Shown here piece after piece: positions 1 to 14,475 of a stretch of DNA of 40,199 bases (position 1 is the first letter of the stretch; every line of letters starts with the position of its first letter). The stretch spans positions 1-40,199 of the IMG/VR virus record IMGVR_UViG_3300032272_000036, one strand, 5' to 3'. The translations under genes were made by a program, and so were the position numbers. The notes under the pieces were generated by a model. It saw nothing but the letters and a program-made list of their open reading frames with translations, searched no databases and was not told the DNA's origin. This stretch comes from a virus. Taxonomy: Duplodnaviria > Caudoviricetes.

Positions 1-15
1 CAGCAAAAAGAGTTA

Positions 16-318
16 ATGCAGGTTCGGCACACTAAAGAGCTTAACTCTCTAGATGTAGATTATGCCACTGAGCACAACAAAATATCTACAGGAGACACAG
101 TATCTTCTGGATACGGGACAATAGTCGTCGATAAGATAGACGTTGCAAAAAGCAATATTTTTTCAAATATCCCATGCTGCATATACAGCGGCAGAGTGTT
201 AACAAAGTCAATGTCGTTGCGCAAAGATGGTCAAACCATGACGGTTTGGCAGCATAGCGTAATCAGACACCTAACCACTGAGACAGGAGGTTATGTCCCT
301 GGAGACTGTAAAAAATGA
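16..318 (+). CDS. hypothetical phage protein (true start may lie upstream of the window)
   Basis: 100-aa ORF co-oriented with the operon; no motif recognised. Confidence 0.55.
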   Translation: MQVRHTKELNSLDVDYATEHNKISTGDTVSSGYGTIVVDKIDVAKSNIFSNIPCCIYSGRVLTKSMSLRKDGQTMTVWQHSVIRHLTTETGGYVPGDCKK

Positions 319-428
319 CAACAATAGTCTCAATAATCCTGGCCGCATCGGTGGCCTACGGTGCTGTATTTGTGGATGTTGTTGAGCCGTTGCCAATAGT
401 TTATGAGATTGAAACTGTTTGTGATTAA
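315..428 (+). CDS. small hydrophobic protein (37 aa, MTTIVSIILAASVAYGAVFVDVV...)
   Basis: ATGA overlap with the upstream stop; hydrophobic N-terminus; below the ORF-track cutoff. Confidence 0.4.
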   Translation: MTTIVSIILAASVAYGAVFVDVVEPLPIVYEIETVCD

Positions 429-441
429 CCAACAAAACTCC

Positions 442-470
442 TTGCAAACAATCAGCAAATATGCGATAAT
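442..470 (+). promoter_or_regulatory. sigma70-type promoter for the replication operon
   Basis: TTGCAA(442-447)-17 bp-GATAAT(465-470), with TG extended -10 at 462-463. Confidence 0.6.
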
Positions 471-562
471 CTGGATATCAAGTGAAAGCCGGGGTGGTGC
501 CTGGCTGGATGATAAAAAAATAAAACGAAAGGTAAGAGAATTAAAATGTATCTGAAAATTTT

Positions 563-644
563 AGGGCAGCAAACAAATGGAAAGGGCTTTCGGATCTGTA
601 ACCGCAGATTATTCCCCCTGGATATTTGTTTGCTGCCCTTTTTT
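563..644 (+). terminator. long leader hairpin / intrinsic terminator or attenuator
   Basis: 16-bp perfect inverted repeat AGGGCAGCAAACAAAT(563-578)/ATTTGTTTGCTGCCCT(624-639) followed by a T-run; inner hairpin ATCTG-TAACCG-CAGAT. Confidence 0.65.
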
Positions 645-659
645 GTTGAGGTGCATTAA

Positions 660-1334
660 TTGAAGAATTTTTACGAACTATTTTTCCATACTATACGCCA
701 CTCTAGCAAGGCGGACCTTGAGTCGTTTAGGCGATACATCAACAACAATATTACCTCTGAGATAAAGCTAAGAGGCAAGAGAGGTGACGATGTAAAGCAG
801 AAGCTAAACGAAAGCAACTCAGTTTTGCCAATCCCATCCGGAAAGAAAAAATATACCCAAAGAATAAAATACATAGAATTTGTTTTAAATCAAAAGTGGG
901 AATACCTTTATTCTGGTGGTTCTTATGACGACTCTAAGGATTACTATGTCTATGCTCACGTTGACCCACTGTCAAAGGATTACAACCTTAAAGATAGACT
1001 AAACATTGTAGGTTTGCCTTTTTATATTGGCAAAGGAAAGGGTAATAGAGCTTGGGACCTGAACCGTAATCAAGGCCATGACGTAAGAATAAAATCAGTT
1101 CTCTCTAAAGGCTACGGCCCTTCCCATATAGTTAACATCGTTAGAAAAGGATTGTCTGAGGTTGAAGCGTTAGCCTTAGAATCTCAACTAGTTTATGTGT
1201 TCAGGACAGTATATGAGAATCAACAACACGGATTGCTTTATAATATTGATACAGGGAAAAGACCAGATTTCGAGGCTATTTCAGAAGTACCAGACAGGAA
1301 GCAATGTATCATCCGGAGAGGGCAGCAGTCGTGA
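660..1334 (+). CDS. GIY-YIG (LEM-3-like) endonuclease
   Basis: YYVYAHVDP...PFYIGKGKGNRA...LSEVEALALESQLV...LYN motifs; GAGG before a TTG start. Confidence 0.75.
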   Translation: MKNFYELFFHTIRHSSKADLESFRRYINNNITSEIKLRGKRGDDVKQKLNESNSVLPIPSGKKKYTQRIKYIEFVLNQKWEYLYSGGSYDDSKDYYVYAHVDPLSKDYNLKDRLNIVGLPFYIGKGKGNRAWDLNRNQGHDVRIKSVLSKGYGPSHIVNIVRKGLSEVEALALESQLVYVFRTVYENQQHGLLYNIDTGKRPDFEAISEVPDRKQCIIRRGQQS

Positions 1335-2035
1335 TAGGCTGGATCAAAGTCCATAGAGAATTACAAAACCACTGGGTGTTTGAAAATCCAGAACATCTGA
1401 AGGCATGGTTGACTATCATCATGGAGGTAAATCATACCGACCATAAAGTTGCGATAGGTGGAAAGCTATTCGAGTGCAAACGTGGTGAAAGTTTAAAGTC
1501 ATTGGACACATGGGCAAGGCTATTTGGTAAGTCGTGGAACAAATCGAAGGTTAGAAGGTTTTTCAAACTTCTCGAAACTGATTCAATGTTAGTCACTAAA
1601 AACGAATCAAAAACGACACGGCTAACAGTATGTAATTACTGCAAATACCAGTCAGAGCGAAACGCAGATGAAACGCAAGTGAAACGCACACGAAACGGAA
1701 GTGAAACGCAAGTGACACCAAACAACAATGATAAGAAGGTTAAGAATGAGAATAATGATAAGAAAGAAGCTGCAAAGCGTGTGATTGACCACCTAAACGA
1801 AAAAACATCCAAGAGATTTAAAAAAGTAGAAACAAATCTTTCACTGATTGTTTCAAGGATGGCAGAGGGATTTTCTGAGGACGACTGTATAGTGGCAATT
1901 AATAATCAAGTCGTTGCATGGGGGAATGATGAAAAGATGTCTGCTTTTCTCAGGCCACAAACATTGTTCTGTAAAAGCAAAATCGATGGGTATGTAAATA
2001 ACGAGCCTAAAAAAACTGGAGGGTCAAGGTTTTGA
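1331..2035 (+). CDS. phage replication initiator (lambda O/DnaD-like N-terminus, Phg_2220_C-like C-terminus)
   Basis: GWIKVHR N-terminal motif, LTVCNYCKYQ, C-terminal VIDHLNEKT...LRPQTLF..SKIDGYVN; GTG start overlaps the upstream stop; helicase lies directly downstream. Confidence 0.85.
   Translation: MIGWIKVHRELQNHWVFENPEHLKAWLTIIMEVNHTDHKVAIGGKLFECKRGESLKSLDTWARLFGKSWNKSKVRRFFKLLETDSMLVTKNESKTTRLTVCNYCKYQSERNADETQVKRTRNGSETQVTPNNNDKKVKNENNDKKEAAKRVIDHLNEKTSKRFKKVETNLSLIVSRMAEGFSEDDCIVAINNQVVAWGNDEKMSAFLRPQTLFCKSKIDGYVNNEPKKTGGSRF
1659..1713 (+). repeat. iteron array, probable replication origin
   Basis: five tandem 11-mers GAAACGCAGAT/GAAACGCAAGT/GAAACGCACAC/GAAACGGAAGT/GAAACGCAAGT inside the initiator gene, followed by an A-rich tract. 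Confidence 0.8.
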
Positions 2036-3252
2036 AAGAAACAGAACAAGCATTAATAGGGGCAATGATCGGAGACCCAAGCTGTATTCCTTCTGTTATT
2101 GGAATAGTAAAAGCTTCTGACATGGAGACAGAGAAAGGATATTTTGCGTTTGAAGCAATAGAAGAGCTTTTTCGTGAAGGGGCTGCAATTGATCCGGTAA
2201 CTGTTGGTACTAGTCCTGGAGTTGATTTTCTTTACGTCACATCATCGACAAGTATAGGGTTCTGGACTAGCGCAACACAGTATGCAGTAGAGATTGCAAC
2301 TGCATCAAAAATAAGAAGGATGAAAGACGGTTTAAACAACCTGATATCATGCAAGAAGGCAGAAGATATTTTGCGCGGGATAACTGATATCTACAACAAT
2401 GAGTCTGGAGGGAAAGGAAAGGAGCCTGAAATAGTAGATGTCATTGGCCGTTTTGACGCTCACGTAAAAGCCAACATTGCCCGCGGGTCGACTGGACTTG
2501 CTACCGGAATACAACGACTAGATAACTCAATGATTTATTACGTTAGCGGGCAAATTTGGGCTTTAGGCGGGTACACATCGACAGGTAAAACTGCCATGAT
2601 GGTGCAGATGATTGTTAACTTGTTCATGGCAAACAAAAAAGCAAGGGTTTGTGTCATTGCCACAGAGATGACAGAAGAACAAATGGTGGCAAGGATTTTG
2701 GGTAACATGACAGGTATTTATTCACAGAGGATTCTTGCCGGTGACGTGTGGCCAACAGACCAGGAAAAGTATTCAAAAGCATATAGTCAATTAAAATCGT
2801 GGAACCTTAAAATACACGATGATATAAATGAGCTTGCTGATATTGAATCTACAGCAAGAAGTCATGCAATGCGCGGGGGAATCGATGTCTGTTTTATTGA
2901 TTATGTTCAGAATTGCCATGTAAAAGGAATTGACAACTCGTACATGGAGCAGAAAACACTTGCTACAAACATTCAGCAGCTTGCGAAGACAACGAATTCG
3001 ACTATGGTGTGTTTAAGCCAAGTGAGCAACGCAGTAGGCCGTGGTGATGTCGGAACGTTTGAGTTGAAGGGCGCTGGTGAGTGGGCTGCTGTAGCAGATG
3101 TGGGAATGATGTTGAAACGTGGTAAAATTGATGAAAGAGAGTTATTGCTTGATGTTCCAAAAAATCGCCACGGAGTAAAGCCAAGTGTCATTTTTAAGTT
3201 CAGCAAGAACTACTCAAACATGGTTGAGATACCAGAGGACTCACCAATATAG
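2032..3252 (+). CDS. dnaB: replicative DNA helicase, DnaB-like
   Basis: Walker A GGYTSTGKT, ATEMTEEQM, FIDYVQ, LSQVS, KNRHG. Confidence 0.9.
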   Translation: MKETEQALIGAMIGDPSCIPSVIGIVKASDMETEKGYFAFEAIEELFREGAAIDPVTVGTSPGVDFLYVTSSTSIGFWTSATQYAVEIATASKIRRMKDGLNNLISCKKAEDILRGITDIYNNESGGKGKEPEIVDVIGRFDAHVKANIARGSTGLATGIQRLDNSMIYYVSGQIWALGGYTSTGKTAMMVQMIVNLFMANKKARVCVIATEMTEEQMVARILGNMTGIYSQRILAGDVWPTDQEKYSKAYSQLKSWNLKIHDDINELADIESTARSHAMRGGIDVCFIDYVQNCHVKGIDNSYMEQKTLATNIQQLAKTTNSTMVCLSQVSNAVGRGDVGTFELKGAGEWAAVADVGMMLKRGKIDERELLLDVPKNRHGVKPSVIFKFSKNYSNMVEIPEDSPI

Positions 3253-3287
3253 GCAAAAGCAAAGCATATTGAGCGTTTAATCAAGGA

Positions 3288-3401
3288 AAAGAACAAGTTT
3301 TCAGGTAGGATGGCTGGTTGCAGCGAATTTTTATGTGAGGAAATTATTATGGCAAAAATAGAATGTGTTGCAAAAAATACGATGAAACGTGTTGTTAACT
3401 C
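3288..3401 (-). repeat. degenerate attC-like site (array 1, site 0)
   Basis: GTTAACTC(3394-3401) is the exact complement of GAGTTAAC(3597-3604) at the gene end; AAC at 3292; arms decayed. Confidence 0.45.
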
Positions 3402-3603
3402 AAGTAAAAAACAAATGACATTTCCGTGGGCTGTTTTTTTGGTTGTTGTTATGACAATAGCATACGCCTACCATTGCGAAACTGGCGACAAACTAAGCGG
3501 ATTTTTCATTTATTTCTGCGCAGTTGTTGGATGTCTTTGTGTGTGGTCGATAGACACAAAAAATTATTATTACGTTAAGTACTTAAAAAGTAAAGAGAGT
3601 TAA
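3349..3603 (+). CDS. small membrane protein, cassette cargo
   Basis: GAGG RBS at 3337; two hydrophobic segments; stop TAA overlaps the TAAC core. Confidence 0.65.
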   Translation: MAKIECVAKNTMKRVVNSSKKQMTFPWAVFLVVVMTIAYAYHCETGDKLSGFFIYFCAVVGCLCVWSIDTKNYYYVKYLKSKES

Positions 3604-3662
3604 CGCTGAGGCAACTGGTTGCGTGGCAGTTTCAGTAATCCATGTTTAGAGTTTTATTATAC
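3598..3662 (-). repeat. attC-like site (array 1, site 1)
   Basis: + strand AGTTAAC GCTGAG GCAACTGG...T CCATGTTTAGA GTTTT ATTATAC. Confidence 0.7.
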
Positions 3663-3681
3663 ATTTTTGGAGGTAAAAAAC

Positions 3682-3924
3682 GTGTGCGAATGCGAAGAAA
3701 AAGACTGTGAATACAAAGAAGGTAAATTATACTGGCACGAAGCTCTTGATAGAGCCCATGTTGCTTGTGACCACTTTTACGAGTATGTGCAACAGCATAT
3801 AGCGGTGCAGCATGACGAGGCACTTGAAGAAGCTGCAACGGCTGTCACTGATGCTATGCGGGATTTTTATCAACTTGTTGGCCGCAAATCATACGATTTT
3901 GACCAAAGGGACGGAGAAGTATAA
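3682..3924 (+). CDS. hypothetical protein, cassette cargo
   Basis: GGAGG RBS at 3669 and GTG start; HEALDR motif; stop lies in TAAC. Confidence 0.7.
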   Translation: MCECEEKDCEYKEGKLYWHEALDRAHVACDHFYEYVQQHIAVQHDEALEEAATAVTDAMRDFYQLVGRKSYDFDQRDGEV

Positions 3925-4117
3925 CGCTGAGCTCAATTGCCCCAAGTGGCTTAAGGAGAAGTACGATGGCAATATGTGAACACAAAAGCAAATGTGAAAA
4001 TTATACAAGCGAATGTAATAGGCTGGCCCACCCTTTTATGAACGCAAAGAAAGGGTGCTTGGAATTACCAAGCAAAAAACCGCTGACCTTGGGGTCGATT
4101 GAAGCGCATTGTTCTAT
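3919..4117 (-). repeat. long attC-like site (array 1, site 2, 199 bp)
   Basis: GTATAAC GCTGA GCTCAATTG CCCAAG...CTTGGG G T CGATTGAAGC GCATT GTTCTAT; loop contains the RBS and ATG of the next gene. Confidence 0.75.
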
Positions 4118-4280
4118 TGATTGGGCTCTTTTTACGGATAAGCGCCCAGAGATAGGAGAGTGGATATTAGCATACACTAAAGGCAGAACACCACAGACAT
4201 CTTTCCACACGATTAAATATTATAAAGGTGACGAAACTCAATATACCCACTGGGCTTCATTGGAAGCGCCAAATCAATAG
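3966..4280 (+). CDS. DUF551-like domain protein, cassette cargo
   Basis: C-terminal W...DKRPE.G.WIL...THWASLEAP pattern; AAGGAG RBS. Confidence 0.65.
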   Translation: MAICEHKSKCENYTSECNRLAHPFMNAKKGCLELPSKKPLTLGSIEAHCSIDWALFTDKRPEIGEWILAYTKGRTPQTSFHTIKYYKGDETQYTHWASLEAPNQ

Positions 4281-4331
4281 AACGCTTGGATAAATGGCGA
4301 GGAACGAGTCCAATTAATTATTTTGTTGGTT
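4277..4331 (-). repeat. attC-like site (array 1, site 3, 55 bp)
   Basis: ATAGAAC GCTTGG ATAAATGG CGAGGAACGAG T CCAATTAAT TATTTT GTTGGTT. Confidence 0.8.
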
Positions 4332-4350
4332 TACGACAAGGAGCGAGAAA

Positions 4351-4554
4351 ATGACTGATACAGAAAGAGTTAAGAAGGCAATAGACTTCGCAGTAGAATG
4401 GGGAGGGGTAGACGGGGAGCACCATAAGGATTGGTGTATTGACCAAATGGTAAGGATTTTAGCAGGCGATGAATATGACAATGTCGTGAAGGACGCGTGC
4501 GCAGGAGAAGACGGACCTGATACGTTTGGCTGGGATTGTGGAATAGCGCCATAG
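4351..4554 (+). CDS. hypothetical phage protein, cassette cargo
   Basis: AAGGAG RBS; GGVDGEHHKDWCIDQMVRIL...WDCGIAP resembles a common small phage family. Confidence 0.75.
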   Translation: MTDTERVKKAIDFAVEWGGVDGEHHKDWCIDQMVRILAGDEYDNVVKDACAGEDGPDTFGWDCGIAP

Positions 4555-4556
4555 TA

Positions 4557-4688
4557 AACCAACGGTTGAATTAACTGGTTTGCGGACTTAGCGCAACCAA
4601 GGAGAATATAGCAATGAGTTATGAAAACAGTAACCAAGTTCCAGGAACCGACGCTGCCCGCAAATCCACGTTGAATGATTTGTTATAT
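4557..4688 (-). repeat. attC-like site (array 1, site 4, 132 bp)
   Basis: AACCAAC GGTTGA ATTAACTGG TTTGCGG...CCGCAAA T CCACGTTGAAT GATTT GTTATAT; extrahelical T and G on the + strand. Confidence 0.85.
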
Positions 4689-5054
4689 GTTTATTCTGGG
4701 AGGTGTAGGCAGTGTGAGGTAGGGCTGCCAACTGGTTTAAAAGATGACGCTGGAAACAGATTAAGAACCGGCGATATTGTAATGAGCTATACCGTTGACT
4801 CTTTTGGGGTGGCGAATTTCGATGGGCTGACGGTCGTGATAGCTGACCAGTGGCAGACATATAGCGACGGGAGTCATGTGTTACAGGAAGATAAGGCCAC
4901 CCCTTTTGTGATGGGGATAAAAAATGTGGATTTAGAGCTAGAGACAGGGGTTTACCCCGATCACGTATGGCGGGTGCGAAGATTGAAGGCATACGAAGAC
5001 GTTGTTGATGGTGAACACTGGAAAGATTTTGGCTTCAGTTTCAAGTCCATATAA
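4614..5054 (+). CDS. hypothetical protein (YopX-like TGLKD..G..L..GDIV segment), cassette cargo
   Basis: AAGGAG RBS inside the attC loop; stop lies in TAAC. Confidence 0.7.
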   Translation: MSYENSNQVPGTDAARKSTLNDLLYVYSGRCRQCEVGLPTGLKDDAGNRLRTGDIVMSYTVDSFGVANFDGLTVVIADQWQTYSDGSHVLQEDKATPFVMGIKNVDLELETGVYPDHVWRVRRLKAYEDVVDGEHWKDFGFSFKSI

Positions 5055-5181
5055 CGTTTTAAATCACGGGATTTTTGCAATTAAATCACAAAACGAGGAA
5101 CGAAGAAATGACCGATGATAACACAATAGACGAAGAACGAAGCCAGGACTGCAAAAATTCCGGTGAATTGCCTTGTTATAC
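5049..5181 (-). repeat. attC-like site (array 1, site 5, 133 bp)
   Basis: ATATAAC GTTTTA AATCACGGGA TTTTTGCA...TGCAAAAA TTCCGGTGAATT GCCTT GTTATAC. Confidence 0.8.
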
Positions 5182-5455
5182 ACGATGCAAGGTAAAAGCG
5201 TTGAATGTTTCCAGTGATATGGTTCTCGTTGATTATTCTGTCAGCCACAACAATGGGACAACCACAGTTGAGCAGTCTATGAGATTGGTAAAAGAGCGCG
5301 GAAAGTGGAAAGCAGAAATTCAATTATTTGATTTTCCAGAACAGGATACACCAGATCGTGCGGCAACTAAACTTTCTGAATGGCTAGGTAGATTGAGCTT
5401 GGCGATAGCTGGTGGGGAGTGCTCCAATATCTACCTGGATGATCTTGGCGTATAA
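5108..5455 (+). CDS. hypothetical protein, cassette cargo
   Basis: GAGGA RBS and ATG inside the attC loop; stop lies in TAAC. Confidence 0.7.
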   Translation: MTDDNTIDEERSQDCKNSGELPCYTRCKVKALNVSSDMVLVDYSVSHNNGTTTVEQSMRLVKERGKWKAEIQLFDFPEQDTPDRAATKLSEWLGRLSLAIAGGECSNIYLDDLGV

Positions 5456-5472
5456 CAGTGTTAATAAGTGGA
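5452..5472 (-). repeat. array-terminal attI-like site, copy 1
   Basis: ATAACAGTGTTAATAAGTGGA; near-identical to 9170-9190 and 12417-12437. Confidence 0.65.
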
Positions 5473-5541
5473 CAACTTTTCCACGCTTAACTTGGTTTTT
5501 TAGTTGATAAGTGGAAAATACAAAATAACAAAGGGCATAAA

Positions 5542-6141
5542 ATGACTTTCCAGACGAAGATATTTGTAGATGGAGATGACGGAGAAAAGTTATCATGTGC
5601 TGAAGCTGCTGCAATTTTAAGTGGCGAAGGTAAAAAGACGACAGCAAAACAAATACGCAACCATATTGCAGGGAAAAATATTACGACGATCGACGGATTG
5701 CGTAATCATAGAGAAAAAGTTGAGAGAAAACTAAAGTCATTTAAGCCAAAGCCACCGATAAGGGGAGACGATGGAAAAGTTATCAGTAACGCTGATGTTG
5801 TTAACACCCTAAAAGTAGAGGGGTATACCGCGTATGAGCAAAAGGTGAGCTATTACCGTGATCGTCATGGCGCTAAATCGCTCAACGATCTGAGACGGTT
5901 ATTTGGCGAGAATGTAAGAGTTGATAGTCCTCGTGGGATATTGTCTGGAGAGTTTGTAAAAATTGAAGATAAGATTTACAAAGTTGCAGAGGTCTTTGCC
6001 AACGGAGCCGGCCGACCTGATTTAATGTGCAACCCGGTAATGACCAATGGACAAGTTTTGACACGTACAACGAGATATATTAGCGGCACTGAAAAATGGC
6101 GTAAACTGAAGTATGACCCAAAGGTTTTTATTAAAAAGTAA
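5542..6141 (+). CDS. hypothetical basic protein, possibly DNA-binding with an internal repeat
   Basis: 199-aa K/R-rich ORF; two GDDG-led segments. Confidence 0.65.
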   Translation: MTFQTKIFVDGDDGEKLSCAEAAAILSGEGKKTTAKQIRNHIAGKNITTIDGLRNHREKVERKLKSFKPKPPIRGDDGKVISNADVVNTLKVEGYTAYEQKVSYYRDRHGAKSLNDLRRLFGENVRVDSPRGILSGEFVKIEDKIYKVAEVFANGAGRPDLMCNPVMTNGQVLTRTTRYISGTEKWRKLKYDPKVFIKK

Positions 6142-6159
6142 AAAAATGTGTTTTTACTG

Positions 6160-6188
6160 TTGACTTATATGTCCAATGGGTATATATT
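6160..6188 (+). promoter_or_regulatory. sigma70 promoter with overlapping imperfect palindrome (operator candidate)
   Basis: TTGACT(6160-6165)-17 bp-TATATT(6183-6188); TATATGTCCA-A-TGGGTATATA spans the spacer. Confidence 0.65.
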
Positions 6189-6245
6189 GTAGGTAAAGGA
6201 TGAGGCAATAAAGCCTTAAGCGACAAAGACAACAGGGAGAACATT

Positions 6246-6464
6246 ATGAAAGCTACAATTAACCCAGGAGCAGAATTTGATTGGACTGGAAAAACATGGG
6301 AAGAATTAGCAGTTGCCTACGGGATGGACGAGAAATCAATGAGAGAAGAAGCTATTGAGTTCCAGAATTGCGAAGGGTTTGACGACGAAGGTAATGAATC
6401 AGATGATTTACACGAGTGGTTGACTAATGAAAATGCCGCATTTGTAGACAATACACCTTTTTAA
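6246..6464 (+). CDS. small acidic hypothetical protein
   Basis: GGGAG RBS; 72 aa, very D/E-rich. Confidence 0.7.
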   Translation: MKATINPGAEFDWTGKTWEELAVAYGMDEKSMREEAIEFQNCEGFDDEGNESDDLHEWLTNENAAFVDNTPF

Positions 6465-6512
6465 CATAACCAACGGGGCTTGGAAACAGGCCCCACAACA
6501 AGGAGAGAGACG

Positions 6513-6704
6513 ATGAAACTTTATATTTTTAACAGAGAAACAATGAAAGTTATTGCTACAGTCGAAGGAGACAGGAACATTGACTGTGAGAGAATAGCAG
6601 AGGAAAACGGATCTTGTCCGGACGAGACAGTAGGCTGGACATACTCTCCTGGGTTTGGGTTTGAAGGTGGACTTGAGGAAAATGACAAAGTCGTAGAGCT
6701 TTGA
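6513..6704 (+). CDS. small acidic hypothetical protein
   Basis: AGGAGAG RBS, ATG at 6513; preceded by hairpin GGGGC...GCCCC (6475-6494). Confidence 0.65.
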   Translation: MKLYIFNRETMKVIATVEGDRNIDCERIAEENGSCPDETVGWTYSPGFGFEGGLEENDKVVEL

Positions 6705-6705
6705 A

Positions 6706-6903
6706 ATGAAAAATTTAACGATTGCAGAATTAAGAGGCAAAACAGGACTCACTCAGAAGGAATTCGGGAAACTGCTAGGCATGACACAGCCAGCAGTTAA
6801 CCGGATCGAGTCCGGTAGGCGCACTGAGACTAAAGGGCACCTCGCAACCTTGGCTGCGCTTGATCTTATTATCGAGAAAGGGATGCTCGATTTGTTGTTG
6901 TAA
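6706..6903 (+). CDS. XRE/Cro-family HTH regulator
   Basis: LRGKTGLTQKEFGKLLGMTQPAVNRIESGRR. Confidence 0.9.
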   Translation: MKNLTIAELRGKTGLTQKEFGKLLGMTQPAVNRIESGRRTETKGHLATLAALDLIIEKGMLDLLL

Positions 6904-6942
6904 AAAAATATAACGCCGTTTTAATAACGAGGAAAGATTATT

Positions 6943-7104
6943 ATGAAAAAGTATGAGAGCGTAAGGATGGCCGTTTTAATCCAGTTGATGTCAGAAATCA
7001 CCGGAAGCCAAGAAGGTGTGATTCTGGAGGCATTACAAGGCCATTGTATTGACGAAGAAGACGCTGGTGCTATTAAGAGAGAACTTGACGAAATCCAAGA
7101 GTGA
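6943..7104 (+). CDS. hypothetical protein (53 aa, MKKYESVRMAVLIQLM...)
   Basis: GAGG RBS; below the ORF-track cutoff. Confidence 0.5.
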   Translation: MKKYESVRMAVLIQLMSEITGSQEGVILEALQGHCIDEEDAGAIKRELDEIQE

Positions 7105-7226
7105 TATCTGGCAACCAAACGGCAATCTCACCAGTGCCGCCACCGGATGAGTAAAAATAACGCCAGCGTTCCAATAATCCGGTGCAACGACTGATCAAAA
7201 CAGCAACCAAGGAGGAAATATACACC

Positions 7227-7321
7227 TTGCAAAAACATGAGCGATAGAGTATAAAGTAATAGTCGCTTCATCTCCCTCCTAAACCCCATTGCCACCTGTG
7301 ATTCTCGGCAATGGGGTTTTT
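7227..7321 (+). ncRNA. candidate small RNA (promoter, anti-SD-like segment, intrinsic terminator)
   Basis: TTGCAA(7227)-17 bp-TATAAA(7250); CTCCCTCCT; 13-bp perfect stem 7281-7293/7307-7319 plus Ts. Confidence 0.4.
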
Positions 7322-7407
7322 CTCGTTTTGACCAAAAAATACATAGAATGCCAATTATTTTGTCAATTACATTGTAAATCTAAATATAATGTGTTATTTT
7401 ATATATT

Positions 7408-7587
7408 ATGAAAGAAGAAATTAAGCCAAGTAAATATTGTAAGCAGCAAGGTTTCAAAACTCTAACTGAATGTTCTAGAGTAGTGGACGTTAAAGTCCCA
7501 ACGCTTAGGAATTGGAGCAAATACCACCCTGTTCGTTTTAGGGCTGTTGTGGCTGGTGGTGTGTTTATTAAAAATAATAACCAATAA
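7408..7587 (+). CDS. small HTH-like protein (59 aa)
   Basis: PSKYCKQQGFKTLTECSRVVDVKVPTLRNW pattern; below the ORF-track cutoff. Confidence 0.55.
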   Translation: MKEEIKPSKYCKQQGFKTLTECSRVVDVKVPTLRNWSKYHPVRFRAVVAGGVFIKNNNQ

Positions 7588-7788
7588 TCATGGACAAAAG
7601 AATGGAAAAGACAGATCTCCATATGTATTTTTTTTGCTTGCCTTGGGTTTAGTGTGGTGGGTTTACTTGTTCCTGTTTTTAGTGGCGAGCCGTTTTTAGC
7701 CGCGGCGTTTGTAATTGCTGCGCTAATAGACAATGAAAAATAATTAGGGTTTGTTTTCAGGGTGAAGGATCGTGGTGAGGAGGGTGTT

Positions 7789-8109
7789 ATGAAAAGAGAA
7801 GTGAGAATTATTGTTTTTGAAGATGATGATATTGAAGATGATATTCCGACTGCTCCTGCCGAATTTATGGCGTTTTGGCGAGAGAAGATAGACTTAATCC
7901 CCCAGGAATTTATGGACACGGCCAATATAGATCTTGTAGGTGATTCGCGATGGGAGAGCGGATACCTTGAGGCTAGAATCAGCTTTACCAGGCTGGAGAC
8001 TGACGAAGAAGAGGCGGCAAGGTTGAAAAAAGAAGAAGACCGCAGAAAATTTATAGAGAACCAAGAGCTTTGTCAACTTGAAAATCTCAAGGCTAAGTAT
8101 GGGGTCTAA
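7789..8109 (+). CDS. hypothetical protein
   Basis: GAGGAGG RBS; stop lies in the TAAC of a degenerate attC-like site. Confidence 0.7.
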   Translation: MKREVRIIVFEDDDIEDDIPTAPAEFMAFWREKIDLIPQEFMDTANIDLVGDSRWESGYLEARISFTRLETDEEEAARLKKEEDRRKFIENQELCQLENLKAKYGV

Positions 8110-8192
8110 CCCAATAATAATCCGTGGCCCTCAATGTATATTCCAGTAGGGTCATTGACGTTCTAGCCATCCAGGTAATTTTGTTGTTAGCT
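8104..8192 (-). repeat. degenerate attC-like site
   Basis: GTCTAAC CCAATA ATAATCCG TGGC...GCCA T CCAGGTAATT TTGTT GTTAGCT; same layout, weak L-box pairing. Confidence 0.4.
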
Positions 8193-8306
8193 GAATATAT
8201 AAACAATATTATGCTATTGGAAAAATGATTATGAAAAAAGAAGAAGTTTTAAAAACTTGTGCAAAAGTAGTTATTGCTGGTGTCACAACCGTAAGAAGGC
8301 ATAAAA

Positions 8307-8900
8307 ATGACAAAGGATAAGAAGAAGAAGCCTGATTGGGAAGCGATATGGTGTGATTATCGTGCTGGTGTTTTGTCAGTAAGGGAAGTAGCAAGAGTCC
8401 ACAGTGTAGACGCTTCGTATTTGTTGCGTAAAGCCAATAAGTTAGGTGTTAAAAGAGACCTTACTAAAAGGGTAAAAGAGGCGGTAAATACTAAATTAGT
8501 CCACGGATCAGTCCACACTCCAGGGACAAGCGACGATGATATTGTCGAAAAGGAGAGCTCTAGAGTTGTTGATGTTGTCATGTTGCATAGAAAGGATATT
8601 CAGGATACACGGGAAGCAGTCAGGATATTGAGGGATCAGCTTATTGAGTCCACGCTGAACATTACTGAGATTGAGGAGGAGATTGTTAAAGAGACTGAAG
8701 ATGATAGAGGGGCAAACCGCAGGAACCAGATGTTGAAGGCAGTCTCATTACTTTCAAGCTCTTCAATTATTGGAAATCTTACTAATGCCATATCAAAGCT
8801 GATTCCCCTTGAGCGTCAGGCACACAACCTGAACGACGAAGAGGATACAGAAAAGAAACGTATTTTTGTTTCTAGGGTGAAGGCTGGGAGTGATGGTTGA
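8307..8900 (+). CDS. terS: terminase small subunit
   Basis: PDWEAI..DYRAG.LSVRE.A HTH, ..RDL.., LIPLERQA; upstream of terL. Confidence 0.8.
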   Translation: MTKDKKKKPDWEAIWCDYRAGVLSVREVARVHSVDASYLLRKANKLGVKRDLTKRVKEAVNTKLVHGSVHTPGTSDDDIVEKESSRVVDVVMLHRKDIQDTREAVRILRDQLIESTLNITEIEEEIVKETEDDRGANRRNQMLKAVSLLSSSSIIGNLTNAISKLIPLERQAHNLNDEEDTEKKRIFVSRVKAGSDG

Positions 8901-8980
8901 CGCCGTTATAAGCTGCCAGCCGACAAACTGACAGCTAAACCCCTGACCTCATTCTGGTCAGCTTTATAAAATTGTTATCT
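8895..8980 (-). repeat. attC-like site (array 2, 86 bp)
   Basis: GGTTGAC GCCGTT ATAAGCTG CCAG...CTGG T CAGCTTTAT AAAATT GTTATCT. Confidence 0.8.
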
Positions 8981-8999
8981 TTAAAATCAAGAGGATATT

Positions 9000-9173
9000 A
9001 TGGAAAAGTTTACAGTTAAACACTACATAGACCATGCTCACCCATCCATAAAAGGTTTTGGTTTTGATGGTCTTGTTGTCGGGGAATACAGGGAAGAGGC
9101 CGAAGAGTTTATTGAATTTATTAATGACATTCTTGATAAGTGCGAAAAGGCAGGGGTTAGCATAGAAAGATAA
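9000..9173 (+). CDS. hypothetical protein (57 aa, MEKFTVKHYIDHAHPSIKGFGFDGL...), cassette cargo between terS and terL
   Basis: GAGG RBS; stop lies in TAAC; below the ORF-track cutoff. Confidence 0.7.
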   Translation: MEKFTVKHYIDHAHPSIKGFGFDGLVVGEYREEAEEFIEFINDILDKCEKAGVSIER

Positions 9174-9190
9174 CAGTGTCAATAAGTGGA
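9170..9190 (-). repeat. array-terminal attI-like site, copy 2
   Basis: ATAACAGTGTCAATAAGTGGA. Confidence 0.65.
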
Positions 9191-9203
9191 AAATAGTATT
9201 TAG

Positions 9204-10478
9204 ATGATGAACAAACCGCAACTGAAATACGACTACGAACTCAAAATATGTGAGGACATGTACAACCCTATCTACCTCCCGTATTTAGACCAGTCAAGGT
9301 CAACAGAGATTTTTTACGGTGGTTCGTCATCAGGAAAATCAAACTTCATTGCACAGCGAACGATTGAGAATATCATGGAAGGCGGTCACAATTACCTGTG
9401 CTGCCGGAAGATGGGGAACTCGATCACCAAATCAGTATTCAACGAACTAACTAAAGCGATTTCGAAACTGAATGTTGGCCATTTATTTAACGCCGTCCCA
9501 TCCCAGGGTCACATAACTTGCGTAAACGGGTATCAAATATTATTTAGCGGCCTTGACGATGTTGAAAAAGTTAAGTCGATCACGCCAAAACTTGGCGTAA
9601 TTACAGACGTTTGGTGTGAAGAAGTGACAGAAATGTCTTACGCGGATATCAAGCAGCTGCGGAAAAGGTTGAGGGGGGTGGCCGTTTATGATGATCGCAG
9701 AATCCAAAAGCGCATAGTTATGACATTTAACCCAATTTACAAGACTCACTGGATCTATAAAGAGTATTTTGTCCCAATTGCCTGGAAGGATAACCAGAAA
9801 GAACACATTGACGAACGTCTTAGTGTTCTCAAGACAACCCACCTCGACAATGAGTTTCTCGATGACGAAGATCACTTGTTACTTGAAGAGGAAGAGGATG
9901 AGTATTGGTATCAAGTTTACACACTTGGAAACTTTGGTATACTTGGTGACGCAATCTTTACCAACTGGCGTACTGCAGATCTTTCAAAAATAAGTAAATC
10001 ATTCGACAGGATCAGAAACGGCCTTGATTTTGGTTATAGCTCTGACCCTAACGCTTACGTGCGGATGCACTACGACAAGCCTCACAAGAGAATATATATC
10101 TTCAAAGCATGGATGGCTAAAAAACTCACAAACCCAATGATTGCCGAAAAGCTCAAGCCTATAATTGGCAAGGAGCCAATCTTTTGCGACTGTGCAGAAC
10201 CAAAATCAATAGCAGAATTGCAAGCCGAAGGAATCGACGCTAGGCCGGTAAAAAAGGGCAAAGATTCAATCATGCACGGGATCAAGTGGTTACAAAAACA
10301 CGAGATCGTAGTTGATGAAGAATTGCAGCCAGTAATTAACGAGCTCAACACGTATCAGTGGAAAAAAGATAAAGACGGGAACGCGCTTCCAATCCCAGTT
10401 GGGGATGATGATTTTATTGACGCGACTAGATACGGAACAGAGATAGAACACACCGGATTCTTTGAGGGACTGGTTTAG
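9204..10478 (+). CDS. terL: terminase large subunit, PBSX family
   Basis: FYGGSSSGKS Walker A, VWCEE Walker B, TFNP, GLDFG, DCAEP, DDFIDATRY. Confidence 0.95.
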   Translation: MMNKPQLKYDYELKICEDMYNPIYLPYLDQSRSTEIFYGGSSSGKSNFIAQRTIENIMEGGHNYLCCRKMGNSITKSVFNELTKAISKLNVGHLFNAVPSQGHITCVNGYQILFSGLDDVEKVKSITPKLGVITDVWCEEVTEMSYADIKQLRKRLRGVAVYDDRRIQKRIVMTFNPIYKTHWIYKEYFVPIAWKDNQKEHIDERLSVLKTTHLDNEFLDDEDHLLLEEEEDEYWYQVYTLGNFGILGDAIFTNWRTADLSKISKSFDRIRNGLDFGYSSDPNAYVRMHYDKPHKRIYIFKAWMAKKLTNPMIAEKLKPIIGKEPIFCDCAEPKSIAELQAEGIDARPVKKGKDSIMHGIKWLQKHEIVVDEELQPVINELNTYQWKKDKDGNALPIPVGDDDFIDATRYGTEIEHTGFFEGLV

Positions 10479-10656
10479 GCCAGTAATGTTTATGTTGTGA
10501 AAGCTAAAATAATAAAGTTTCCAAACAAGAGACAACGAGAGCTGTCACTACTAAAAAAGCAACGATTACTTGATCAACAGTTTGATCTGGTGAATAGGAA
10601 GATTAATATCTCCAGGATCAAACGACGACAATAACCACCTATAAGGAGGGTGAAGT

Positions 10657-10890
10657 ATGTGCCACGAAAGATGTAAAAAGTGTGAGAATGTTGAAAACTG
10701 CATAGTAAAAGATAAAATCAGAAACCCTGGAATGTGTAATTTTTTCCTTCCTGCAGACAGCGAGGATGAACAGGGAGCGAGGGAATTTCTGGTTGATGTA
10801 CTTGATTCTAAATTCAACAACCATATTCTGGTTAAGATGCCGGGTGGTTTGGCTTGTGAGCTTGCAGGTTTTATTCAGAAACTTCAATAA
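10657..10890 (+). CDS. small Cys-rich hypothetical protein
   Basis: AAGGAGG RBS; CxxC-rich N-terminus. Confidence 0.6.
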   Translation: MCHERCKKCENVENCIVKDKIRNPGMCNFFLPADSEDEQGAREFLVDVLDSKFNNHILVKMPGGLACELAGFIQKLQ

Positions 10891-10973
10891 GTAGCGATTG
10901 AATTAAGCGGATGGCTAGTGAAGCCAGCTAAAACAGCAAAGTTTATTCCAGTTCGATTGAATACTGGTTGTGT
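10889..10973 (-). repeat. degenerate attC-like site (array 3, site 1)
   Basis: AGC(for AAC) GATTGA ATTAAGCGG...T TCGATTGAAT ACTG GTTGTGT. Confidence 0.55.
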
Positions 10974-10983
10974 GAGGTTATTT

Positions 10984-11181
10984 ATGTATACGTTAATTTT
11001 ATTTTTTATTGTGTGGCTTGTTTGGTTTTCCGTTGGATGTGCTGTTTTATCCTTCATTGACGATGAAAATAGCAGTTTGTTTAAGTGGGCCTCATCTTGT
11101 CCAATTCCGATTATAGGGTATCCGATGGTTGTAACTATGTGGCCTTTGTTGGCTTGGGCGTGGCTTCATAGGGAAGTCTAA
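10984..11181 (+). CDS. small membrane protein, cassette cargo
   Basis: GAGG RBS; two hydrophobic segments; stop lies in TAAC. Confidence 0.65.
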   Translation: MYTLILFFIVWLVWFSVGCAVLSFIDDENSSLFKWASSCPIPIIGYPMVVTMWPLLAWAWLHREV

Positions 11182-11262
11182 CGATTTAATCAGTGGTCCG
11201 CCACTGACTTGCAGATTTAATAAACTGGGTCTCTTCGTCTCCACTGAATTAACTTGTTGTAA
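11176..11262 (-). repeat. attC-like site (array 3, site 2, 87 bp)
   Basis: GTCTAAC GATT TAATCAGTGG...T CCACTGAATTA ACTT GTTGTAA. Confidence 0.75.
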
Positions 11263-11326
11263 TGTATAAGGATATTATGATTATAGAAAAAAATAAAGAT
11301 CAATATGAAACCAATGAGGTAAAAAA

Positions 11327-11512
11327 ATGGGACATCCGGCGAATGACAAAGCAACTTTAGAAGCTATTTTTAAGGCATTTAACCACGCTAAAGATTCTGG
11401 AGAGGATACTGTAGTGCAGACATGCAAAGGAGATGTAAGATTCAAGCCCGGTTTGACTGGGGTTAAAGTGCAAATAGAAGGTGCCAAAACAGCTAGAAAC
11501 AATTCTAGATAA
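11327..11512 (+). CDS. hypothetical protein, cassette cargo
   Basis: GAGG RBS; stop lies in TAAC. Confidence 0.6.
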   Translation: MGHPANDKATLEAIFKAFNHAKDSGEDTVVQTCKGDVRFKPGLTGVKVQIEGAKTARNNSR

Positions 11513-11564
11513 CGCGCCAATAACTGTCGAGCTTGCGAGTCCATGTTAATTGGACTTATTGGGC
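11507..11564 (-). repeat. attC-like site (array 3, site 3, 58 bp)
   Basis: 37/38 identical to 11951-11988 (ATAACTGkCGAGCTTGCGAGTCCATGTTAATTGGACTT). Confidence 0.85.
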
Positions 11565-11599
11565 GATTTGCCCGGAACCTTAATTTGAAAGGAAATATT

Positions 11600-11902
11600 A
11601 TGAGTGAGAAAGAAATTGAACAAGAGATCCAGGACAAAGGGTTGAACGCTCCAAGACTCCGCCCGGCAGATATCGACACCGTGATCGTTGGTGAGACCTT
11701 CACCACATTACCAAGCGGGAAGGCCATGGTCTGTGAGTTAACCCTTGCCAGTGGTTTTACCGTGCGGGGTGAATCGGCCTGTGTCAGTAAGGCGAATTTT
11801 GATGAGGGCATCGGCCAGAAGATAAGCAGGGAGAACGCACGAAATAAGGTTTGGGAACTCGAAGGCTACCGGTTGCAATGTGATTTGGCCCGTGGAATCT
11901 AA
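11600..11902 (+). CDS. N4 Gp49 / Sf6 gp66 family protein, cassette cargo
   Basis: IEQEIQDKGLNAPRL...GFTVRGESACVS..NFDEGIG...KVWELEGY signature. Confidence 0.85.
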   Translation: MSEKEIEQEIQDKGLNAPRLRPADIDTVIVGETFTTLPSGKAMVCELTLASGFTVRGESACVSKANFDEGIGQKISRENARNKVWELEGYRLQCDLARGI

Positions 11903-11936
11903 TTTTATCGGGCGGCAAGGTTGCAGAACTTTGACC

Positions 11937-11995
11937 GCCCAACGTTTGAGATAACTGGCGAGCTTGCGAGTCCATGTTAATTGGACTTGTTATAT
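11937..11995 (-). repeat. attC-like site (array 3, site 4, 59 bp)
   Basis: - strand reads ATATAAC...GTTGGGC (perfect GTTRRRY). Confidence 0.85.
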
Positions 11996-12016
11996 GCGTT
12001 TTTTACGGAGAACATT

Positions 12017-12208
12017 ATGAAATGGTTAAATTTTATACCTCTTGTTTTGTGGGCAATTGGTTTTTTATGCGCCACGGAATGGTCATTGCATCTTAGGCAA
12101 ATTGACGGGAGGGTGAGTGACCTTAAAACACAATCTGAAGCAGGAGCTAAACTGTGGCTTTATGGTTCAATACTGTTTTTGATTATCGGAATTTTATTGT
12201 CAATATAA
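12017..12208 (+). CDS. small two-TM membrane protein, cassette cargo
   Basis: GGAG RBS; stop lies in TAAC. Confidence 0.7.
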   Translation: MKWLNFIPLVLWAIGFLCATEWSLHLRQIDGRVSDLKTQSEAGAKLWLYGSILFLIIGILLSI

Positions 12209-12260
12209 CGTAGGATGTTCAACGGCGAGCTTGCGAGTCCGCTGTAACTTTTTGTTATCA
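12203..12260 (-). repeat. attC-like site (array 3, site 5, 58 bp)
   Basis: ATATAAC GTAGGAT GTTCAACGG CGAGCTTGCGAG T CCGCTGTAAC TTTTT GTTATCA. Confidence 0.85.
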
Positions 12261-12276
12261 AGCATAGAGGAAGAAG

Positions 12277-12417
12277 ATGATTAAATACTTCAAAGAATTA
12301 TTGACAACGCTGGTTAAGATTGAAAAACATCTGGAAAAGATATCAAAATGTGTAGCTGAAAAACATCATGGTCACGGTGACAGATTTAGTATTTCCACGA
12401 AACATTGGAATGATTGA
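12277..12417 (+). CDS. hypothetical protein (46 aa, MIKYFKELL...), cassette cargo
   Basis: GAGG RBS; below the ORF-track cutoff; ends TGA-TAAC. Confidence 0.6.
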   Translation: MIKYFKELLTTLVKIEKHLEKISKCVAEKHHGHGDRFSISTKHWND

Positions 12418-12437
12418 TAACAGTATCAATAAGTTGA
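12417..12437 (-). repeat. array-terminal attI-like site, copy 3
   Basis: ATAACAGTATCAATAAGTTGA. Confidence 0.65.
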
Positions 12438-12459
12438 AAGTTAATCACGCAATAACACT

Positions 12460-13179
12460 ATGACCCAAAAAATAACAATAGAAAAGCCAGATCACATAGA
12501 AGGAACCGCCGGAGCAAGAAAAGACTGGGCAGTGATAACCGGAAAAGAACTCACACTGAAACCAGCAGTGTTTCTTCACTCAAAAACCGGTGAATATTAT
12601 TGTCACCTCGTGGGCGGCGTGGCATATCCTGTTGCAACTGGGCAAGAGGTAAAGCCTGGAATTTTATTAATAGTTGGCATACAGAACGAACCAACTGTAA
12701 AATTCACCGTTCTCGAATCATATGAGGACAACAATGTTTTTAACCTGATTGAAAGAATGGTAACGTTGCGAAGAGATTACCTTTTTGGAAAAGATTCTCG
12801 TATCCTTCCGAACTGGTACGGCGATCAAGAAAAATATCAGACATTAATACTTAAAGCGTCAGAATCGCTTGAGAAACATAAAGGTAGTGAAGCTGGCCTA
12901 TACATTAAAGACACAGTTGATAGGAGAGAAAAGCACTGTTTCCCTTTGTATGTGCGTCAAATATTTAACGCATTGGAGAAAAAACAATTAGATATTAACG
13001 GTGACCGAATAGTTACCGGAGCACTACAGTCATTTCAACGAGAAGATGCGGAAAAAGGGGCACTTGACAATTTTCCGCTTGTAGGTTTGCTAGGCGGTAT
13101 GGTACACTCATTGCAGGTTGAAAGGCCCTGGCTTGAGGATGCCGATGGTGAGGGTACGGTTTTCAACGTTGAATTTTAA
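12460..13179 (+). CDS. hypothetical protein, possible terminase-nuclease (RNase H)-like fold
   Basis: 239-aa ORF; pattern of three strands, helix, W.GD, terminal helix (inference). Confidence 0.6.
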   Translation: MTQKITIEKPDHIEGTAGARKDWAVITGKELTLKPAVFLHSKTGEYYCHLVGGVAYPVATGQEVKPGILLIVGIQNEPTVKFTVLESYEDNNVFNLIERMVTLRRDYLFGKDSRILPNWYGDQEKYQTLILKASESLEKHKGSEAGLYIKDTVDRREKHCFPLYVRQIFNALEKKQLDINGDRIVTGALQSFQREDAEKGALDNFPLVGLLGGMVHSLQVERPWLEDADGEGTVFNVEF

Positions 13180-13278
13180 AAGTCATGATGGATAGAAACG
13201 GCTCGACTAAGTGGCCGGGTATCGGTAGTAGTCCTGATTGGCTAAAACTCTGAGGACTTAAATGTCTGGAGAAACAAA

Positions 13279-14475
13279 ATGTCAGTAGATAAATTAGTAG
13301 CAGTAATGTCTGGTAGGTCAACTTATAATGTCAGGGATGAAGACGACATGACATCCGATGACGCATTTGGAGTTCCGACTCAACAGAGCGTAAAGGCTTA
13401 TGCTGATGCCCTAGTGGTAGCAGGTTCGTCATCAACTCAGACACTAACAAATAAGACCTTGGATGATGCAACGTGCAAGTTCGCCGACACGGCAGACACA
13501 ACCAAAGACCTATTTGTAAGTCTTGGCGGAGCTACCACAGCGAAAACCATGACCATCATTTCGAGCCAAACAGACGATAGGTCGCTCACATTGCCTGACG
13601 CGACCGATACTCTGGTAGGTAAGGCAACAACCGATACACTAACCAACAAAACCTTAACAAGCTCAGTGTTGAACGCCGGAGTAAGTGGAACCGCAGTTCT
13701 CGACGAAGATACGATGTCTTCCGACTCTGACACTAAAATTGCCACACAGCAAAGCATCAAAGCCTATGTTGACACTCAGGTTGTAGCACAAAACATTTTC
13801 CTCCGTGGAGAGATAGCTGACATATCCAGCGCCGCAAGCACATGGGTCGTGTCCCCTGTGGCCGGTGACATTACCGGAATTACCACAGTTATTGATGGCG
13901 CTATCACTGTTGGTGACGCCGCTATTACTTTTGAGATTGGTGGTACACCAGTAACAGGCGGTGGAATCACAATTGCGTATTCAGGTTCAGCGGCAGGAAC
14001 CGTTGATTCTGCAACTCCCTCCGCAGCAAACACTGTAACGGCAGGGCAAGTAATCGAGATAATTACAGACGGCGGGTCTACTGACGCAGCAATGGCGGTT
14101 GTCACGCTTGAAATCACCCCGGCAGCAGCGGCCCCGAAGAAAGTTTATGTAACAGGAGAGATTGCAGACGTATCGACAGGTGCTTCCTCATGGGTGACTT
14201 CTCCAATTGCTGGTACAATCTCAAACTGGTGGAGTGTTATTGACGGTGCTATTGCGAGTGTTGACGCTGGGTTAAGCCTTGAGATTGCCACGGTCGCTGT
14301 GACAGGATCAGCTATCACCGTTGCATTCTCAGGGTCAGGTGCAGGAACAGTTGATACAGCTGCTCCAACAGCGGCGAATACTGTAACCGCTGGACAGGCG
14401 ATTGAGGTCATCACAGACGGGGCAAGCACAAACGCTGTTAAAGCTGTTGTCCTCCTGGAAATCACGGCGGCATAA
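13279..14475 (+). CDS. virion structural protein (fibre/decoration-like) with internal duplications
   Basis: two DED.M.SD....TQQS.KAY motifs, TLTNKTL repeats, two tandem ~110-aa Ala/Thr/Gly domains. Confidence 0.75.
   Translation: MSVDKLVAVMSGRSTYNVRDEDDMTSDDAFGVPTQQSVKAYADALVVAGSSSTQTLTNKTLDDATCKFADTADTTKDLFVSLGGATTAKTMTIISSQTDDRSLTLPDATDTLVGKATTDTLTNKTLTSSVLNAGVSGTAVLDEDTMSSDSDTKIATQQSIKAYVDTQVVAQNIFLRGEIADISSAASTWVVSPVAGDITGITTVIDGAITVGDAAITFEIGGTPVTGGGITIAYSGSAAGTVDSATPSAANTVTAGQVIEIITDGGSTDAAMAVVTLEITPAAAAPKKVYVTGEIADVSTGASSWVTSPIAGTISNWWSVIDGAIASVDAGLSLEIATVAVTGSAITVAFSGSGAGTVDTAAPTAANTVTAGQAIEVITDGASTNAVKAVVLLEITAA

Follow-up and report, generated by a model that had tools for sequence, protein, structure and literature searches.

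We describe an array of six short gene units in the 40,199-bp viral record IMGVR_UViG_3300032272_000036, which was analyzed over its whole length (hereafter the window). The record is ~73% complete, its genes lie nearly all on the + strand, and its phage gene set includes a replication initiator, DnaB, TerS, TerL, a portal protein and a major head protein. The array begins directly downstream of the replication gene DnaB (2032-3252) and ends in a short motif that matches attI, the entry site of bacterial integrons. At the level of the sequence, our analysis shows each unit to be a hairpin followed by its gene, and we argue below that the units are probably integron-type cassettes whose genes are reversed with respect to their attC hairpins. 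The open reading frames (ORFs) of the units are as follows:

3349-3603, + strand: unit 1 ORF, 84 aa; no PHROG or Pfam family at E 0.001
3682-3924, + strand: unit 2 ORF, 80 aa; start lies after the site; 109 relatives at E 0.001, in a family of no assigned function
3966-4280, + strand: unit 3 ORF, 104 aa; residues 1-48 encoded by site 2; weak DUF551 lead below the cut-off (E 0.13)
4351-4554, + strand: unit 4 ORF, 67 aa; common small phage gene (phrog_23179); start lies after the site
4614-5054, + strand: unit 5 ORF, 146 aa; first 22 residues supplied by site 4; a non-cassette homologue aligns from residue 24
5108-5455, + strand: unit 6 ORF, 115 aa (phrog_30735/1258); first 22 residues supplied by site 5; a homologue aligns from residue 24

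Six gene units with complementary ends

The original prediction, made from the letters of the DNA, held that the GTT end of the site before each gene is complementary to the AAC end after the same gene, and not to its own site. All 12 end motifs quoted for it sit at the coordinates given, and all six end pairs were confirmed. Beyond the 3-bp core the complement extends over 5, 4, 9, 7, 5 and 4 bases (sum 34), whereas the GTT ends match their own sites at only 1, 0, 0, 0 and 3 bases. Shuffled end pairings score lower, with a mean of 10.0 over 720 permutations. Two of the 720 reach 34, namely the true pairing and one in which units 2 and 6, which have identical ends, trade places; the 265 derangements score 10 at most. 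Since the quoted GTT ends had been picked after the match was seen, the test was repeated blind, taking each GTT end from a hairpin scan and each AAC end from the next site. In the repeat, units 3-6 rank first of 24 permutations, and 16 cassettes from five phage records reach a sum of 80 as compared to a permutation mean of 26 (0/200,000) and a value of 25 for own-site pairing; at least four bases match in 14/16 cassettes, and 2/16 fail. The complementary ends lie 170-370 bases apart, across a gene, and the R' and R'' boxes of one cassette are complementary in its circular form. When each unit was joined in silico into a circle at AA|C, the predicted core pairing rose from 0.00-0.34 to 0.93-0.99 in units 1, 3, 4 and 5 and from 0.72 to 0.83 in unit 6, but it reached only 0.22 in unit 2. 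The predicted cassette reading and AA|C boundaries stand for units 2-6, whereas the start proposed for unit 1, at 3294, is uncertain since the left arm of site 0 is unpaired. The original prediction included neither the inversion of the genes with respect to bacterial cassettes nor a terminal attI.

Strand polarity of the attC sites

To each unit belongs a site, and these were compared with a two-arm profile built from 24 bacterial attC sites (leave-one-out, 24/24 correct) and with a covariance model from 18 bacterial bottom strands, whose structure was set by hand and whose stem covariation lies above all 500 shuffles. Profile scores are given with the minus strand as top strand against the opposite orientation:

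3292-3396, - strand: site 0, decayed distal attC-like site; profile -1.5 vs -11.3; 8-bp complement to 3597-3604
3602-3658, - strand: site 1, 57-bp attC with ATT instead of GTT and weak arms; profile 12.5 vs -27.3
3923-4113, - strand: site 2, 191-bp attC; profile 31.6 vs 1.6; two extra bases in the 3' arm on +; no covariance-model match
4281-4327, - strand: site 3, 47-bp attC; profile 20.7 vs 2.2; covariance model 13.6 bits, E 0.42
4561-4684, - strand: site 4, 124-bp attC; profile 33.0 vs 3.5; covariance model 26.3 bits
5053-5177, - strand: site 5, 125-bp attC; profile 37.1 vs 7.9; covariance model 29.0 bits

Sites 2-5 contain the R''-L''...L'-R' inverted repeats with the AAC/GTT triplet, and site 1 does so with ATT; an 82%-identical relative of site 1, with GTT intact, sits in a canonical cassette of the bacterial genome G574. 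Site 0 lacks this architecture: its right arm and R box are recognizable, but the left arm (3292) fails to align or pair with the right one, and the site scores poorly in both orientations. Being symmetric, the end complementarity by itself fits a cut at AA|C as well as one at G|TT. We chose AA|C because of four independent results: the extra bases in the 3' arms, the strand favored by the host-trained profile and covariance model, the four start codons that lie within sites, and a cassette of array C (described below) that is held in common with viral contig G029 from AAC to AAC. Extra bases are present in the 3' arm on + at sites 1, 2, 4 and 5, at the site of array B and at all four sites of array C (C1-C4), with site 3 ambiguous; attC bottom strands in Table S3 of PMC9892861 likewise carry them there. 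The profile favors minus as the top strand at sites 1-5 (12.5 to 37.1 vs -27.3 to 7.9), and the covariance model gave 8 matches at E <=1, all on + and 7 of them inside arrays, recovering sites 3, 4 and 5 but not 0, 1 and 2. Because the 3'-arm bases, the profile and the covariance model agree on + as the bottom strand, the genes, judged from sequence, lie on the attC bottom strand and each site precedes its gene, which is the reverse of bacterial cassettes. The usual layout, in which the gene is on the top strand and its attC lies downstream, is not seen in the units, and in bacteria sites of this family lie on the non-coding strand.

The hairpins also contribute to the coding sequences. In units 1, 3, 5 and 6 the likely start codon and ribosome-binding site lie within the hairpin; the unit 1 start, which was picked by its ribosome-binding site, falls inside site 0 and places the GTT box at residue 16, and in units 5 and 6 the homologue alignment begins at residue 24, the position of the GTT box. 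Several relatives of unit 2 have differing leaders that resemble hairpin-coded peptides, a likeness seen at the protein level only. Cassette ends were found at 1/80 viral homologue loci of unit 4, which marks it as an ordinary phage gene. The unit 5 homologue in locus L010 (2980-3400) stands among small genes that are split by a short direct repeat overlapping each start codon, a different modular layout. Separately, lone attC-like left arms with no partner arm follow stop codons at 6911 and 7158 and are possibly eroded cassettes, and a loose arm-pairing scan was dropped as unspecific (15 and 6 matches vs 1-12 in controls).

The attI-type core in phages and bacteria

The array ends in an attI-type site, and two further arrays with the same ending lie in the terminase region and beyond:

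5453-5519, - strand: attI-type entry site; its 20-bp core (5453-5472, crossover triplet 5454-5456) matches host attI, with a partial extension as in phage G002
8899-9190, - strand: array B, between TerS and TerL; one inverted cassette (8901-9173) with an ORF at 9000-9173 (+), and an attI core at 9171-9190
11180-12437, - strand: array C; sites at 11180, 11511, 11941 and 12207, and an attI core at 12418-12437; the last cassette (12209-12420) is also in viral contig G029

The core thus occurs three times in the window (5453, 9171 and 12418), each time after an inverted cassette, as compared to 0.01 copies expected for a pattern that was drawn from these three. In species genomes it was found at 44 loci, 28 of them titled with Desulfobacterales, Desulfobulbales or Syntrophaceae names. 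These three groups belong to Desulfobacterota. Thirteen of the 44 were set aside as core-only matches, by chance or unrelated, although 3 of them have titles of Desulfobacterota type. With a fuzzy pattern, a longer element was recognized in 31 loci, with one false positive (L014), and the neighboring or first host cassette gene reads away from the motif in 20/31 loci and toward it in 1, the remainder being unclear (5) or too short (5). Two apparently inverted genes in the host arrays L023 and L050 resemble shadow frames; for the G004 cassette, two calls of sense orientation were discarded in favor of a 301-aa methyltransferase on the other strand. The first cassettes in hosts show an end complement of up to 13 bp. 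We searched 24 of the motif-bearing genomes, of which 13 encode an IntI above the threshold. Nine of the 24 have the motif immediately upstream of intI, at 10 places in all (8 with an IntI over the TIGR02249 cut-off and 2 with a partial one). Among 14 IntIs examined, those with the motif number 8 and group into a single clade, 67-97% identical internally and <=58% identical to the other six. As the 20-bp motif adjoins intI and tracks one IntI clade, we identify it from these comparisons as an attI core, and its identity to host attI places an attI at what would be the entry end of the array. Its link to a single named IntI clade opens the system to direct testing by standard attC x attI assays, and the core can also serve as a host marker for uncultured phages.

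The same core ends inverted arrays in five further viral records (4/8 and 1/6 viral matches) and in two short metagenome contigs; 4/8 and 4/6 viral motif matches were set aside as chance or unrelated. The five records have no replication, terminase, portal or capsid protein in common with the phage of the window (tblastn, E 1e-4), and their arrays carry a DNA methyltransferase, a radical SAM protein and a Lar-like protein as cargo. A strict combined scan of six phage records yields 23 sites, each of them oriented against the local genes; 10 simulated controls yield 0. A scan for the common attC loop gave 6 viral loci, L148 among them.

Several observations on attI stand apart from this comparison. 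In genomes G016, G010, G018 and G022, several attI copies head arrays without an adjacent intI (solo attI arrays). The core lies directly before the terminase large subunit gene in three phage contigs (L182:785-806, L008 at G004:C1:6403, and the window at 9171); no hairpin was seen upstream of it in L182, which is possibly an empty site. In G029 (L190:1747-1792) an attC arm is one base off the attI core, a resemblance of attI to half an attC. A possible more decayed site lies at 10889-10969 of the window.

Cassette movement, mechanism and relation to known integrons

The last cassette of array C provides the clearest case of movement. Positions 12207-12421 are identical to viral contig G029 at 213/215 bases, and the identity runs from AAC to AAC and then stops; the cassette (12209-12420) is first from attI in the window and second in G029, and its neighbors differ on both sides. 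At the sequence level, this comparison shows the movement of one cassette between two viral contigs, as a unit that runs from AAC to AAC, and it follows that the mobile unit is a site plus the gene that follows it. The exact bond cut inside the triplet is taken from known IntI chemistry. Both contexts are present in one sequencing run, which may be the source of both records. The expectation that the units occur independently elsewhere is therefore borne out for one cassette of array C, but for none of the six units themselves.

We favor, with a probability of about 0.75, the reading that the six units are integron-type cassettes in which the gene runs opposite to its attC hairpin, that a copy of a bacterial attI core closes the row, and that a host IntI likely inserts and excises the cassettes in trans. 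The array likely works, as far as its sequence indicates, like an integron whose cargo is reversed and whose enzyme is borrowed. All enzymatic steps are ones that we infer: a host IntI would act in trans on the phage attI and on coding-strand hairpins, the coding strand would fold and be cut at AA|C, and excised circles would re-enter at attI (5455), so that age would increase from unit 6 (newest) to unit 1 (oldest). Entry at 5455 is consistent with the decay at the far end, although the gradient is non-monotonic. For transcription, the genes would depend on read-through from the phage replication operon and not on an integron promoter, and the long hairpins would supply a ribosome-binding site and first residues; a promoter consensus scan found none directed from attI into the array and no excess overall (9 vs 7.0 expected). 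The reversal may have been selected because a normal host cassette entering attI would land antisense to phage transcription. An argument for inversion from the replication strand (bottom strand on the lagging-strand template, Loot 2017) was unsupported, the G-over-C skew coming mostly from first codon positions.

Several observations weigh against this reading. The far-end sites 0 and 1 are decayed, and none of the six units was found as the same cassette elsewhere in the GenBank phages, viral contigs and genomes searched. No recombination joints were found in the contigs of one sequencing run that is possibly the source of this DNA, in an assembly form that drops rare variants. The phage attI copies keep ~21 bp, some slightly more, and are without most of the ~100-bp host extension. 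The motif occurs in only 7/401 sampled genomes of the phylum, and the complete genome G016 holds two copies (C1:1639340 and C1:2327381) far from its only over-cut-off IntI, which is of another clade, so that motif and enzyme are not one to one. The host, too, is inferred: a TerL relative with 66% identity lies on a contig with portal and capsid genes in a Desulfobulbales-order genome (G497), which is a host lead only, as bins can contain free phage. Finally, two phage loci have normally oriented cassettes. A prophage head module in G574 (L227, G574:C9:10000-25364) has seven sites, with host-type cassettes interrupting it at two places, and viral record L193 has an attI core and one normal cassette; in both, the cassettes are antisense to the phage genes and have the same attC polarity as here. 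Inversion is therefore not universal in phages, and these loci suggest that phage DNA also receives host cassettes.

The alternative that survives best, which we nonetheless consider unlikely, keeps the same cassettes and polarity and assigns the reaction to a recombinase of phage origin, such as a short Xer-like enzyme, whose gene would lie in the unassembled part or in relatives. The records are indeed incomplete (~73% for the window and 7-68% for the others), and a phage recombinase may lie in the missing DNA, a point that also counts against a host enzyme; in addition, a 420-aa phage integrase lies ~2.9 kb from the attI core of L193. Against it, searches for a tyrosine recombinase found none, either with PF00589 in five records or with an IntI profile in six (best E 1.3), and the attI core is identical to the one that goes with a bona fide IntI clade. 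The genes that follow the three cores also offer no recombinase lead:

after the core at 5453: a 199-aa protein (no usable lead in atlas and PDB searches)
after the core at 9171: TerL
12460-13179, after the core at 12418: a 239-aa protein with a terminase RNaseH-like lead, separate from TerL

Among look-alikes of the 239-aa protein, one cluster is mostly from Thermodesulfobacteriota.

We regard it as improbable that the array is a relic of past IntI insertions that now changes by homologous or illegitimate recombination between similar hairpins. The decayed distal sites, the lack of joints in the contigs of one run and an array C unit with mismatched ends speak for such a relic, but the cassette in common with G029 is 99% identical and its identity ends at AAC triplets, which leaves no homology for crossing over, and the proximal sites and three attI cores are intact. 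Even less probable is that the hairpins act in mRNA, in translation control, termination or processing, with end complementarity as a by-product: they do lie on the coding strand and four contain a start codon, but the complementary ends are separated by a gene, bacteria carry the same family on the non-coding strand, no hairpin matched Rfam, and terminators show no excess (2 vs 2.0 expected); an RNA role may exist in addition to recombination. Ordinary normal-polarity cassettes, cut at G|TT on + with each site belonging to the preceding gene, would explain the end complementarity equally well, but we give them almost no credence, as the profile and covariance strand scores oppose them, the cut would strip the start codon from units 1, 3, 5 and 6, and the G029 cassette, which carries its site in front of its gene, already contradicts them.

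By the definition of 10.1101/030866 the array is an attC-site cluster with no integron integrase (CALIN) and not a complete integron, as no adjacent intI was found in this ~73%-complete record. Such clusters are already published for phages: Qi 2023 (PMC9892861) reports 17 CALINs among 10,705 phages, which resemble the window in having attC arrays without intI, and finds that IntI1 recombines 5/6 tested sites with attI1, with PH101 attC sites among those recombined. Our own check places the experimentally tested PH101 sites (KR534323, 75919-77987) in inverted orientation relative to the genes, as here, whereas the TJE1 array of that paper has normal polarity. Its available text makes no mention of genes reversed relative to attC and gives a phage attI only in a Shewanella prophage beside a captured integron, whereas in the window three arrays each terminate in a host-type attI core. 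Sedentary chromosomal integrons (10.1101/030866, PMC5371416) share the attC anatomy, the R-box complementarity, an attI at one end and, in Desulfobacterota arrays, the site families; by comparison, no intI or Pc promoter was found for the array, its genes face attI, its cargo consists of small phage-type genes, and site 2, at 191 bp, exceeds the 57-141 bp attC range in Loot 2017 (PMC5371416). Delta-attI cassettes (PMC12901181) resemble the phage core in that short attI pieces can stay IntI substrates, but there the piece replaces attC within a class 1 or 2 integron, whereas here the core ends a phage array and varies little while the adjacent cassettes change. In attG insertions and single attC sites lacking integron-integrases (SALINs; 10.1101/2022.09.11.507474), IntI acts in trans away from its own integron, as proposed here; attG sites have a minimal consensus, whereas the target here is a 20-bp attI core conserved across unrelated phages. 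No report of reversed phage cassettes with a host-type attI was found in the literature searched, which left out most subscription journals.

Integrons have been studied as bacterial tools and, lately, as repositories of genes against phages. Carrying no more than a landing site and reversed cassettes, a phage would use the host enzyme for its own gene exchange. We propose tentatively, at somewhat less than even odds, a broader picture in which unrelated Desulfobacterota phages copied the host attI core, some of them repeatedly within one genome, and use the host integrase to operate a mirror-image cassette pool of their own, with ordinary phage genes becoming cassettes when an attC hairpin is fused in front and gives them a ribosome-binding site and first codons. 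If true, phages would be a place where new integron cassettes arise, and in the conflict between phage and host a single host enzyme would work for both sides. Cury 2016 (10.1101/030866) states that the mechanism creating new cassettes is unknown; cassette-protein homology that starts at the R'' box, after a leader from the hairpin, offers a concrete handle on cassette origin. On the practical side, tools that pair each attC with its upstream gene will mis-cut such cassettes.

Further searches for relatives and hosts gave little. The replication initiator had no match in 401 genomes of the phylum at E 1e-15, and positions 1-13400 matched 2/201 and 0/201 genomes of two orders in a search that scored two candidates per genome and may let short matches, such as spacers of clustered regularly interspaced short palindromic repeats (CRISPR), escape. 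The array had no match in GenBank phages, and viral contigs scanned with DnaB and with unit 4 as single proteins, or with a unit 6 alignment, had none either. In the G497 relative, TerS directly abuts TerL with no cassette insert between them. The G574:C9 contig end bears a likeness to a group II intron 3' end inserted in an attC. In the remainder of the window, a 224-aa ORF with a weak PHROG match lies upstream of the replication initiator (660-1334), and we take its motif to resemble that of GIY-YIG-type endonucleases; toward the other end, positions 31175-39550 encode a 2791-aa phage polyvalent protein with an ART-PolyVal domain (PF18760).

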